DNA from: Tubiluchus corallicola
Lineage: Eukaryota; Animalia; Priapulida
Direction of reading: 5' to 3'
NCBI GenBank assembly: GCA_030141605.1
Contig: JAQGDQ010001128.1
Span: forward strand, 1-60,614
Length of the DNA: 60,614 nucleotides
Shown: in pieces, positions 33,901 to 45,900 of the stretch
Layout of the letters: every line of letters begins with the position of its first letter
Position numbering within the stretch: position 1 is the first letter of the stretch
Position numbers and translations under genes: made by a program
Notes under the pieces: generated by a model
Databases searched by the model: none
What the model saw: only the letters and a program-made list of their open reading frames with translations
What the model was told of the DNA's origin: nothing

Positions 33901-36900
33901 ATTCATGCGAGTAAGAAATTCATGCATTTACTTTTTGAAGGGTTGAAACTGATATTATGGGAGCTAGCAAAATTATTACAACAGTACGGATTTTATACGG
34001 AGTAGAAATGGAATTAGGGAATCGCAGTGAGTTGTCTTTTGTGCAAATTGTACCTTATTCAGTGTTTCTGGCAGAGCATTAAAATGCACATTAAGCAAAT
34101 GTGCAAAGGGAATATCACCCTGCCTAACACCAGACGTGGTACTGAAGCTGAAGCTGGTAATACAATACTTTCAGAAAAGCCACAGCTTTTAAGCCTATCA
34201 AATAATTTCTTGTGATTTATACAATCAAGTGTCTTACTCGTATCGAGGAAATGTTCATAAACAAAACTACCACAATCAACGTACTTTTGTACTTTTGTAA
34301 TATTTCTTTACATAAATATAAAGCTAGCTCAGAGACATATTGCAAAGGATGTTGTTGATTATACTGTCATTTGCAATAGGTTTTACAATTATGAACAGAC
34401 GAAACATCACCAGTTTTAGATTTAACAATCGAAACCAACAATGAGTCAGCAATAATCTTAGATAAATGATTGTTTGATTGTGCTATTAAATAAAAACGAC
34501 AGGTATATGGCAGTCACTAGAACCGGCATACATTGTGTTTTGCAGAGGACCTAATATCACTTTAATTCCCATGTTGTAGAGTCCTATAGAGAGGACCTAA
34601 TATCCATTTAATTGCCATGTTGTAGAGTTCTTGTAGCATTCTGTGAGTTTAACAATTTGGCATTACAATTTTCACCGTTTAGCTCAACATTGGTCCATTG
34701 AATAAGCAATTTCACAGTTCCAGCGAAAAAGTCAAAGGTTAAGTGTACCAGACAACGCATATTTGCACACTTGACAACGCCTCGCAGCCCATGCTATTGT
34801 AATTTACTAACACTTTTAACAGCTAGCTAGACTTTATATTGCTCATTTTTCCTGTCCCCTAGGAGTAAATCACTCTATGCACAGACTAATGCATAATAAA
34901 GTAAACTCCACGTAAAACAGCTTAAGTTATTGAACTGATGCGGTAGATGGCTTTGCTTTACACATATGTCACGTGACGGTTGTCGTTAAGATGCGTTACT
35001 GTGGTACACTTAACCTTTGAACTGCTGCAGCAAGCTGAACACAAGCACAACGAAACTGTGAAAAGGCTTATTAAGCTGAGTTCTTAAATACTGAATTTTG
35101 ATTAGCATCGTAATTCGTATACGATGTAAAATGTTTGAAAAATCTCTTGCAACGTGCTTAATAATTACTGCTTTTTCTAGGTGCGTTCCGTTCAAAAAAA
35201 CATGTGCTGTGAAAAATCTAGGACTTCGTAGAATTACATAAATAATTGTCTAGTTAACAGCTCATTGCTTGACAGCGATGGTAAGAGCTAATCACTTGTT
35301 GTCTATTCTTAGATACAGCACAGAACACTTGGAAAACGTATTCATCCACCTCACAAATGGTCAGCTGAACAAAAATAATGTTAAGTATACTCATAATTCC
35401 AATCACGATCTTTATTCGGAGAAGGGACACACATGGTAAGTTTATAGTAACTTTTCAAAGTAGATTATTATAACTTTAATGTCAACATCGTTGTTAAAGA
35501 CAAAATAAACCCCCACTATAATACAAGCTTTTACAACTTATAATCCTAATGTCATTACGAATACCATTACAACCTTCAGCAAAACTTGTTTCTTTTCATT
35601 TTTTATCACTTCTTTGTATCGTTAGCAGTATTAAATTTGAAGAACCGCAATTTTTCGTTGCGCAAGACGAATGACGTAATGAGTAGAGTTACGAGGTCAC
35701 CAGAGAGCGGTAACCAATGACGCTTTGTGTACCTCATACGTCATTCTCGCTCACTCGCGACAAAGACGCGAAACATGGCGATCTTTATGGCAATGCACGC
35801 GTTTGAAATTCGCCAGAAAAAGGCAAATTATTTAATTTATAGGCCTAAGTCTCTTTTGTTTAATAGTAACTATGAATTCTTTGTGTAATCTTAATAATGC
35901 GTTAAAAACTGTCGAGGTTATATAGGCATTTAATCATGTTATAATCCTCAATTAAATTCTGATACAAAACTTCTGATACTAAACGACAAGAAGCCTGAAA
36001 AAGTTGGAATGCAACCTGGATGTGACAGCTTCTGTTTTTTAAATAAAAATGTTTTTCAAAACAGTTAGCATCATGCACGTAAGTGTTGTTTTGCTTGACA
36101 TTAAAAGCTTCAGTGAAAACGGAATTTGCCACTTTTTCCCCAGTGGCCCGTAACTCAAAACTCTGAAGTGCTGTCCATAATATTGACTTCGTTTACTTCG
36201 ACATTTCTTATTACTTAGGAATTGCATTTCGTTTCAGTAAAATGAAATGTATAATTTTTTGACAGGTAACCAGCTACCAATCTAATTATCAACTAAGATC
36301 TGTGTTGTTTTCTTCACAACCAAGCACACAATGTAACCTTACAAGCATTTCCTTCCTCATTTATCAGAAAATTGGAAAATAATAATTAATTTTACTATTG
36401 TTAGTAACATTAGCACATTCAAATCAATTTTAAGGAAAACGAAAACACAAATTAATATAATTTTGTAGAAACTAACCTGACAGAAGCATTTTGATGCTTT
36501 AAGTTGGTTTCAAACTTACAATTTTTAGGTGTGAAGTCCAGCATTCAGACACGAGTCAATCGAAAAGTCTCAGTCGGTTTTTAAGTGCTATAATAATCGG
36601 GAAAACTGTGACGTCATTTGCCTTGTGCGAGAAGCCGAGAATTCAAAATCCGGGAAACTTATATCATTGGATTCGTCTCGTCGATACCTTTCATTTGATA
36701 TATTACACGATACTGTTATTCGACAACGGAAACATTCGTGTCCCGCCCCGCCCCCGCCCCTCTATTTTGGTTTTTGTCCCCTATGCAAAATGTTCCATAC
36801 GCAAATAGCTTATATTCAGCTTTATACAACAACTCAATCCCACCTAGCGACATACCAAGAATTGTGACTCTAGCTTAAAGATTGCAGGAGGAGATCCAGC

Positions 36901-42900: not shown

Positions 42901-45900
42901 GTGTTAACTCAACATCGGAAGTCATTTTAAAGCCACAGAAGACACGTTTAATTTATGCTAATGACATTTGTTTTACTTGCAACTTCTGTTCCTGTACTTC
43001 AAGATCTTCTGAATACTTGCCCTAGCTTTGCTCACCTACATAAAATTGATTTTAATTAGACGGCAAATTAAATGTCAAAATTTCTTGCCTTTATGCCTGA
43101 AACATGTTATACCAGGTAAAGTATTCCTTGATAATGCTGCATTGCCTGTAAGTAGTCAGAAGAAATATCTTGATCACGTAATATGCACTAATCTAAGTCT
43201 AGTCTTTTTATATACGGATTATAACTTTTTAATAAAAAAATTTTCTATGAATTCAGATAATGCTAAGATCATGGTATTCAAGCTCAACGTTTACTATATG
43301 TCTTTATGGGCTAATATTAGTAATGGTGCGACAAATAAACTACGTATTACATATAACAATGGTATCAGAAAACTGTCTCGCTTAAAGTACGACTGCAGTC
43401 CTTCTGGCATGTGTGTAAACCTGTCTCTACCACATTTTTTCATATTCGCAGAAGATCGTGTTATAAGTTTCGAAATAGGTTACTAGCAATTACTAGTGTA
43501 CACTGGCAATAGTATTATAACTACTATTACGAACTTGCACAGACTTGTCAAATCTTGCTTCTTTGTGAAATGGTACGAATTATTACATAATTAGCCTCTA
43601 ATTTTTATTTAACCTTTAAGTTACTAACCCTATATATAACCCTGTAGTCTTTTAATTTTTATTTCATTGTATTTTATTTTAATGTAATGCTGTATTTGTA
43701 TTTTACATGGTCTTCGTTACTCAAATAAAAATTTGAATTGAAGCGTATGCCGCAAATCAATGGATGAAATCTCCCTGATACTGTGATAGTAGTAGGCAGC
43801 GGAGGCAAAAGAGGGAGAAGAGGACGTTTTTTCAAGTATTTAGCTGTAAAATTAGTTTAATTTGTGTAGATTCATTTCAATCCTAAGTTTGTGTGAGACT
43901 GTTTGACATAGAAAGTCAAGACCAGAAAGTGAAATGACTTGCAGACCTATTTTGCTCTTGATCCTGACATTCTGTTTGAAAGGAAATGGTTTAAGAGGTG
44001 CTACTGTATAAATGTAAGGACACAGTTGAATTTCTTTTACCTACACCGCAGACCTCCAGTTTCCTAATTAATTTATCATCTCGGTGCTAAAGTATGAACT
44101 TATTTTCATAAAATTTCGTATTGCTTTTAGCCAACCTGATGACCCACTACATGCGAGTATTAGTGGTCCGATGTTACGCGATGTTTTTAACACAGCTGGT
44201 TATCGCTTACCGAAGAAGTCTTCATTGCTGACTAGAGAAAGGTTAGTGCTAAACATATCTTAGCCTGCTGTGAAACTTTTATTACTTTAACTAAAGGATT
44301 TCAGCTTACAATGTTTAGAAGATTTTTCAATTTTGGCATGATATTAACCTGTGATGATTAGCTTTCTCGGTTATTTTCAATTGACGCAAAGTAAAGACTT
44401 GTGAGTTTGAATCTCGTTCGTGGGGGTTTTAACTTGATTTTCTTCAAAATGGCGGCTTCTTTGCTGTTTACAAGGCAGCAGCTAGTGCAGCATCAGTGTT
44501 CAAATAACTATATAAATGTCTTAGATGTGTATCCACTGCGCCCGGACAGACACGCACAGACACAGACACAGACACAGACACAGACGAGCAGAATATATGT
44601 AGTTTTGTTGTTAAATTAACGTTTCTGTAAATTTAGGCTTGATTTTGTGATGCTACGGTGCATGCATTTTTTAAATTTGTAGTATATACATGTATTTATA
44701 CTCTCAATTGCCACAATATTTCGACTTTCTTCTGAAAATGCATTGCTTTGTTGTGCTGTTACAGGGAGAAAATAATAAGCTTCAAAACATTGTTGGTTTT
44801 ATAATAAAAGCCACTTTTTTATTTGAAGTGAATTCAACTAGTCTATTTAAATTCCCTTAGAAAACACTCTGTAAAAATTACAACATATGGACGTGCAAAA
44901 TCATAATCAACTGCAACATAATAATGAGAAAAACTACAGTAGATAATTTTAAGGCTTAGCACAAAATTTCATTGAAACTGCTACCGTTTGTCTTCACCAC
45001 CAATTGAAAAATAGTCACGAGCTTTTCATGAAGAGTTTAGTGCCAATGATGCGGTAACTTGACACAATTAAGAACTTGCAGTTTCGTATTGAAGTGCAAC
45101 AACTTTTTTTGCGTGATGTAAAAGAAAATGCACCAGAATATGGTGGTGGAATGATGCCCATTGTTAGCTCGAATATTTAGACAAGAATGCATAATCCAGT
45201 GCTCAAACCTATATTGTTGCATAACGCAAGCACAAGATTACAACATTTCTTTTGTGTCGAGTTTCATAACGCACATGTATGCTAACCAAATTGTTACTGT
45301 GGAATGTAAATGTCAATTGTAAGTGTTAATGTGACTTGAAAGCCTCGATAATAATTTAAATTAGACATTAACTATATGTTATACACGTATAATAATATTT
45401 CTGAAAATTTGAATAATAATTTCATGCTAAGATACAGATAATTAGTTGTTGGCTCTGTTTACCTTAGCGTAACAACACGCGCTGTTCTGGTGAAATACAA
45501 TCCCGAGAATTGTATTCTGTTTCTTAAGATGTTCAGAACACAAATCAAGTAAAATTCGGAAAGTTGCAGGTTGCATTCTCATATAACTAAGGTACTTTTC
45601 TTCGTCCATTACAACTTGTTGGACCAAATGATGATATTCGCCTAGCTGTCCACGGTTTTCAAATATTGGGTGTACCCAAGAACGATGTTGTCGCTTCCTG
45701 TATCGCCTACTTGCCTTTTTCTTTAACCACCACTGCAAAATAAAATCTTCTTTTTTTTAGAAAGTCTCATGTTTAGAATTTCACGCTAAACTTTTGGCTT
45801 CATTTATGACGTGTCCTACGGAATGAGTGCGGTCCCAATAGAAACAACTTTTGCGGACGTAAAACGTGCGGACAGAAAAGTCTGTGTCTGTGCGGACGCA

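Follow-up and report, generated by a model that had tools for sequence, protein, structure and literature searches.

The question raised by this locus is what an enzyme of the TTLL family may still join to proteins once it has lost the lysines that hold donor glutamate. Members of the TTL/TTLL family are known to write the tubulin code in the cytosol, using three donors: tyrosine, glutamate, and glycine. The stretch of DNA analyzed here (the window) consists of 60,614 nucleotides from the priapulid Tubiluchus corallicola (GenBank assembly GCA_030141605.1, contig JAQGDQ010001128.1). The original prediction placed within it, at 35313..44241, an enzyme whose donor-glutamate pocket had been rewritten while its ATP-binding motifs were kept. 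That interval takes in only exons 8-11 of a larger TTLL4-derived gene of 14 exons, whose likely first exon, signal-peptide-like and missed earlier, changes the likely compartment and substrate. The gene structure, the residue changes, the TTLL4 ancestry, and the existence of signal-like relatives in Lingula are established. How the protein functions is a more tentative matter, and its best explanation may be a secretory-pathway ATP-dependent ligase that would attach a small amine other than glutamate to acidic protein side chains.

The gene model extends from 12891 to 49295 on the + strand through 558 codons, with no internal stop and no frameshift, and its 13 introns are all GT-AG. Residues of the predicted product (the window protein) were mapped by alignment, via canonical TTLL4, to the mouse TTLL6 chains, and positions are named below by the TTLL6 residue found there. 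The closest relative of the window protein is a record called P0039. The exons are as follows.

12891..12969, + strand: exon 1 (likely; predicted from sequence), signal-peptide-like start, short acidic spacer, phase-1 donor
16893..17060, + strand: exon 2, linker and beginning of the pre-core segment of TTLL4 type; homologue alignment begins at about residue 60
24429..24536, + strand: exon 3, N-domain
29375..29451, + strand: exon 4, N-domain, with the TTLL4-invariant G, H, and M at 128-131 replaced
31543..31740, + strand: exon 5, K158 (=TTLL6 K125) and K209 (=K174) kept; acceptor-side residues 147-159 changed
32230..32309, + strand: exon 6, phosphate loop with initiase-type Arg215 (at the Q180 position) and the GxGI motif
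32991..33119, + strand: exon 7, R253 (=R219) and R275 (=R241) kept; G238 replaced by Ala272 and L239 by Arg273
35313..35435, + strand: exon 8, T294/N295 kept; Y265/S266 replaced by Gly296/Gln297 (35359-35364) and K283 by Thr320 (35431-35433)
37205..37303, + strand: exon 9, helix; an invariant Thr replaced by Gln351, as in P0039
38017..38148, + strand: exon 10, D379 (=D346) and E392 (=E359) kept; N361 replaced by Thr394 (38135-38137); Arg395 at the H362 position
44131..44241, + strand: exon 11, one-residue deletion; K377 replaced by Ser409 (44162-44164)
46290..46407, + strand: exon 12, C-terminal helical part
48191..48401, + strand: exon 13, TTLL4-type C-terminal domain, 73% identical to that of P0039
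49252..49295, + strand: exon 14, with the stop; it ends within three residues of the ends of P0039 and the full-length Lingula paralogues

Exon 5 carries a one-residue insertion common to the window protein and P0039. Three of the eight exons scanned against PF03133 (the Pfam TTL domain) scored singly above the curated cut-off, and a fourth was a weak match. Among full-length matches the closest are TTLL4s, with a core identity of about 42%, and P0039, at 45-47%. Contigs of run X1, about 99% alike to the window and possibly not independent of its source, cover exons 5 and 7-10 (exon 9 is identical in one), and among the differences listed, none falls at a donor-pocket codon. Matches in run X2 were confined to repeats, a word-based search with exon 5 gave no match, and the single locus from a metagenome scan (L001) was judged a chance match.

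The changes on which the donor argument was first built are all present inside 35313..44241, in exons 8 and 11: HLTNYS has become HLTNGQ, GHKW has become GHTW, and D-x2-IK has become H-x2-IS. The mapping to TTLL6 puts G296/Q297 at Y265/S266, T320 at K283, and S409 at K377. Among the 260 homologues that span the core (97 of 357 hits, which do not span residues 158-415, were left out), lysine occupies the K283 position in 223 and the K377 position in 249, so the two positions do not vary freely. Both lysines are replaced in five homologues only, all of them P0039 or Lingula paralogues. The losses in the window gene are real and rare.

The TTLL6 paper (bioRxiv 10.1101/2020.06.07.139295) describes K283 and K377 as binding the donor's gamma-carboxylate and as invariant in glutamylases and different in glycylases and TTL; K283A or K377A, each singly, abolishes TTLL6 activity. 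R241 (R275 in the window protein) binds the donor alpha-carboxylate. By the paper's account the Y265/S266 pair contacts the donor through backbone amides, not side chains. The original prediction had all four residues binding donor glutamate, which holds for the two lysines and fails for the Tyr-Ser side chains. The change of Tyr-Ser to Gly-Gln is weak evidence because the pair binds the donor through its backbone.

Nine phosphate- and metal-handling residues (K125, K174, R219, R241, T263, N264, D346, E359, and P364) are retained by the window protein, and the same nine by P0039 and six Lingula paralogues; at K125, three Lingula proteins have Lys by multiple alignment, where BLAST had mis-registered them. 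The GxGI and FExxGFD-type motifs are both present. All the motifs initially named are found in one open frame; HLTN-G-Q, GH-T-W, and H-x2-I-S lie within the interval first given, while WISKP, SRGxG, VQKY, KFDLR, and VRF lie upstream of it, in exons 5-7 (31543-33119). Nor is intactness complete, since the acceptor loops have changed and two near-invariant residues are gone. The Asn of E-x-N, two residues past the catalytic Glu (N361 in TTLL6, N333 in TTL), is Thr394 in the window protein, where 258 of 260 homologues have Asn and the other two have gaps; and at the G238 position, Gly in 259 of 260, there is Ala.

Thr394 is not a splicing artefact, because three canonical TTLL4 records that read through the intron after exon 10 stop at the same point and no credible micro-exon exists. 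The one candidate micro-exon in that intron that would restore E-V-N lies inside a 38-bp satellite and has an acceptor score of -3.8, and an alternative donor after E392 scores 1.8, as against 3.7 for the modelled donor.

Changes affect 32 of the 114 columns that are invariant across 36 canonical TTLL4s: the active-site loops account for 22 among their 46 columns, the remaining positions for 10 among 67 (Fisher p 2e-4, with the loops picked partly after inspection of the data). Together with the nine residues kept, this concentration in loops fits retooling better than random decay. The acceptor side has been rewritten along with the donor side, the phosphoryl-transfer set being largely intact. 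An initiase-type Arg stands at the Q180 position (Arg215), and the Ile that TTLL4 initiases have at the H362 position is absent (Arg395). The view that four losses signal a donor switch rather than decay gains from the loss of the lysines, the intact frame, and the clustering of changes in loops. It is limited by the facts that side chains matter for donor binding at just two of the four positions, that the acceptor side has changed as well, and that the replacement of N361 by Thr would also suit a pseudoenzyme.

The lost metal-binding residue (N361) may have inactivated the protein. A pseudoenzyme, secreted or not, would fold and might bind nucleotide or acidic partners but carry out no ligation, and I consider this unlikely, though far from negligible. 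It would account for two changes each almost never seen (N361 to Thr and G238 to Ala), but Thr can still supply an oxygen ligand, some active ATP-grasp enzymes have no Asn in the E-x-N position, and the relatives of the window protein retain it. A metal-binding Asn and both donor lysines are gone, where the loss of either lysine alone kills TTLL6 according to the TTLL6 paper. N333 of TTL appears in a table of critical residues in PMC10335831, and in PMC3520985 EVN is given as an ATP/Mg motif and TTLL12 provides a precedent for a dead member of the family. The window protein, however, has the GxGI and FExxGFD-type motifs described there as missing from TTLL12, and keeps R219 and R241, which in the TTLL6 account serve phosphoryl transfer and not ATP binding alone.

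Besides P0039, the relatives in question are Lingula anatina proteins, an enlarged set whose annotation goes no further than TTLL4 or TTLL4-like, and which was found through a search with exon 5, cluster look-ups, and a profile search. They include XP_013397583.1, XP_013397584.1, XP_013398234.1, XP_013388994.1, and XP_013413700.1, automatic annotations for which no function was found in print. Their layout is that of the window protein: a signal-like start, a linker, and a compact TTLL4 core, ending within three residues of the end of the window protein. They keep the whole catalytic set, N361 included. The donor pockets vary, with mostly Arg at or near K283, and Lys, Arg, Thr, Asp, His, and His at the K377 position. 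A new Cys pair at the phosphate loop is common to the Lingula paralogues, as expected of a disulfide. The core has one to three cysteines in all seven of the window protein, P0039, and five Lingula proteins, compared to four to ten in all 36 canonical TTLL4s. The low count and the Cys pair hint at an oxidizing compartment, the rows compared being related to one another. The predicted model of one Lingula protein (P0271), which serves as a stand-in for the spliced window protein and informs on fold identity only, shows a helix at the N-terminus and a disordered linker, and its core matches liganded TTLL6 at E 1e-30. An Atlas search with another (P0013) returned TTL-family clusters only. P0039 also keeps N361. 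At G238/L239 it carries Ser-Tyr, close to K283 it carries Arg, and the loop that would contain K377 is shortened and has lost that lysine; the record has no N-terminus and so is uninformative as to a signal peptide.

In trees built without TTLL3/8/10 rows, the window protein and P0039 group together at 100/100 within TTLL4; they fall with TTLL4 rather than with TTLL5/6/9, at 100/100 against the TTLL5 outgroup. The two join the Lingula set with a support of 95 in a quick tree of 57 rows. A careful tree of 31 rows, from which the motif columns had been taken out, gives 88/91, with 26 rows dropped, three partial Lingula records among them. A common origin of the window gene and the Lingula set is only moderately supported by the sequences. 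Descent from a glycylase does not agree with the window protein lying nested among TTLL4s, and the TTLL3 chain 5vlq was the weakest PDB match among TTLL chains for exons 7 and 10.

The candidate first exon begins with an ATG at 12891 and has 26 codons, encoding a Lys, an 11-residue hydrophobic core, and small residues at -3/-1, with predicted cleavage after residue 16 and a donor phase-matched to exon 2. Four N-glycosylation sequons are present in the predicted protein. By a home-made rule (not SignalP), the signal-like start is found in the window protein and in eight of ten Lingula records, some of which are isoforms or near-copies, versus two of 262 other TTLL proteins of at least 500 residues. 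Of the two Lingula records that fail the rule, one has a strong hydrophobic core further in and one starts inside the enzyme core. The signal-bearing Lingula family takes in P0013, P0113, P0271, P0272/P0407, P0277, P0278, P0328/P0408, and P0330, several of them on shared scaffolds. From its sequence, I consider that exon 1 at 12891 is probably used as the first exon.

If it is not, the protein could be a fast-evolving paralogue of TTLL4 that stays in the cytosol and uses a new donor, its signal-like start a translated polypyrimidine tract and its true first exon elsewhere. The segment 12940-12969 could indeed serve as an internal exon, symmetric and of phase 1, preceded by a T-rich tract, and certain TTLL4 paralogues of bees lose K283 without having a signal peptide. 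What makes this improbable is that none of the gene's 13 true acceptors gives a signal-like read-through under the same rule, that, of 218 mini-exons in the window running from an ATG to a donor, only the candidate and three others pass it, and that few cysteines and the layout match the signal-bearing Lingula set. The bee paralogues (P0063, P0143, P0164, P0168, P0171-P0176, P0178, P0180, P0182, P0183, and P0186) are a conserved, divergent group in which the K283 position has Met (in one protein Ile) and the Q180 position has Ala, and they are, as judged by these residues, a second candidate for changed specificity.

A secreted ligase might work in four steps. Exon 1 would be used and the protein would enter the endoplasmic reticulum (ER). 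The ER and Golgi contain ATP and ATP-using enzymes, and lumenal ATP would fuel the ligation. The protein would then bind Mg-ATP and form an acyl-phosphate on the side-chain carboxylate of a protein Glu, as suggested by the initiase-type Arg215 and the kept R253, R275, D379, and E392. The incoming amine would not be glutamate, whose gamma-carboxylate Thr320 and Ser409 are unable to hold. Glycine, or another small amino acid, is the first guess, because small polar residues match the published glycylase pattern (hydrophobic or polar residues at both lysine positions in TTLL3/8/10) and R275 is kept; the second choice would be a shorter anionic amine that the new Arg273 would hold, or else a protein lysine. 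Finally, the substrate would not be tubulin, given the rewriting of the acceptor loops and the loss of the long cytosolic extensions. The window protein would work like a TTLL initiase, yet it is not to be classed as a TTLL4 glutamylase, because the donor lysines and the Asn of E-x-N were looked for and are absent.

It is quite doubtful that the protein is a glutamylase still, with Arg273 and Arg395 taking over the gamma-carboxylate from the lost lysines. Arg273 does stand two residues before R275, on the strand lining the donor site, and Arg occurs near K283 in several Lingula paralogues. At the H362 position TTLL7 has Arg, but the TTLL6 paper has that position facing the acceptor, not the donor, and gives both lysines as invariant among glutamylases. 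A decaying duplicate or a recent pseudogene is very improbable: the gene is known without RNA evidence and the 32 invariant positions have changed, but 558 codons run without stop or frameshift between GT-AG splice sites, nine catalytic residues survive at about 42% identity to canonical TTLL4, P0039 follows the same trend at 47% identity, and two of the three coding differences listed for run X1 are silent, these being too few to weigh.

Several findings count against a secreted ligase of non-glutamate donors. The replacement of N361 by Thr is unique to the window protein among the 260 homologues, P0039 and the Lingula proteins keeping Asn. The identity of the donor is a guess from two or three residues, and the Lingula pockets vary: one paralogue retains K377, and most have Arg near K283. 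The window protein is without the Lingula Cys pair. An approximately unbiased (AU) test does not reject placing the window protein and P0039 with echinoderms (p 0.157), nor the Lingula set with molluscs (p 0.30), and the rare residues common to the window protein and Lingula number 14, versus 15 with the divergent bee paralogues. Exon 1 is known from sequence prediction alone, without RNA support, and T-rich intron ends often translate to hydrophobic runs, as they do in several single-exon gene calls and in one true intron of the window gene. An AG inside exon 1 scores 1.8 as an acceptor, compared to 2.0-7.8 for the true acceptors (each left out in turn), and would thus be a weak acceptor, just below the weakest true one. 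A second, poorer signal-like phase-1 mini-exon, ending at 8069 in the upstream interval, also passes the rule.

The DNA of the window is animal-like (about 36% G+C), with satellites and fragments of long interspersed nuclear elements (LINEs) and long terminal repeat (LTR) elements. Upstream of the gene, another gene, oriented divergently, starts at 7744, so that some 9 kb are available to the 5' end of the window gene, unless the two overlap. The first exon of that divergent gene begins with an ATG behind a TATA-like box and an initiator-like element and encodes a hydrophobic signal-like stretch before a strong phase-1 donor; its other exons were not found. Judged from this exon, the divergent gene probably encodes a secreted protein. 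This exon and the repeats, the mobile elements being named by eye, are these.

7744-7651, - strand: first exon of the divergent gene
1-3180: tandem array, 65-bp unit
9513-10215, 27325-28222, 28295-28775, and 51241-52021: other tandem arrays
40305-42926: tandem array, 38-bp unit, 69 copies, in the intron between exons 10 and 11
19734-23849: LINE-like element in intron 2, with frames resembling open reading frame 1 (ORF1), endonuclease, and reverse transcriptase
3788-5422, - strand: gypsy-like integrase frame
54157-59123: further reverse transcriptase fragments

Full-text literature searches, whose coverage largely excludes subscription journals, found no paper on secreted or signal-bearing TTL/TTLL enzymes. 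A role in biomineral matrix gained no support, as neither "glutamylase" nor "TTLL" appears in the main text or one supplementary file each of PMC4595640 and PMC13425148. It is possible, and I put it forward only tentatively, that several invertebrate lineages moved TTLL4-type ligases to the secretory pathway with diversified donor pockets, the window gene being an active member. These would then constitute a class of ATP-dependent enzymes, lumenal or extracellular and so far undescribed, that add non-glutamate amino acids, amines, or isopeptide cross-links to acidic secreted proteins. If so, the signal-bearing branch with rewritten pockets would represent a new post-translational modification of secreted animal proteins, possibly with a fourth donor, and would offer a set of naturally occurring active-site variants to the engineering proposed in the TTLL6 paper. 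If the window protein is active, the near-invariant Asn of E-x-N would be dispensable. The window gene is of more interest for its likely compartment than for four pocket residues alone, and the Lingula family is the better experimental target: its proteins have public accessions and the full catalytic set, and the idea can be tested with them at once.

Comparison with known systems begins with the TTLL4 initiase, from which the window protein has its ancestry, about 42% core identity, the pre-core and C-terminal domains, the initiase Arg, and the intron position after exon 10. It differs in having no donor lysines, E-x-T for E-x-N, rewritten acceptor loops, and a signal-like start, and in lacking the long extensions at both ends (medians in canonical TTLL4s: 292 residues at the N-terminus, 76 at the C-terminus). 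TTLL6, the structural reference (PDB 6VZT/6VZU/6VZQ), has the same nine phosphate and metal residues but differs where the window protein has Arg for Q180, Ala/Arg for G238/L239, Gly/Gln for Y265/S266, Thr for K283, Thr/Arg/Thr for N361/H362/S363, and Ser for K377. The Lingula paralogues share the signal-like start, linker, compact core, end point, altered donor pocket, and scarcity of cysteines, and are set apart by N361, by mostly Gly at the Q180 position, and by the new Cys pair. TTLL12, a proposed pseudoenzyme, likewise has a TTL domain that departs at ATP/Mg motifs, but according to PMC3520985 it lost GxGI and FExxGFD and kept EVN, the opposite of the pattern in the window protein, and it has a SET-like domain, whereas the window gene model has no such region. 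The glycylases TTLL3/8/10 and TTL, compared by their published pattern, also have residues other than Lys at K283 and K377, their route to other donors, and the initiating glycylases have Arg at Q180. The known glycylases are cytosolic, however, and the window protein is derived from TTLL4, so that a glycylase-like pocket in it would be convergent.

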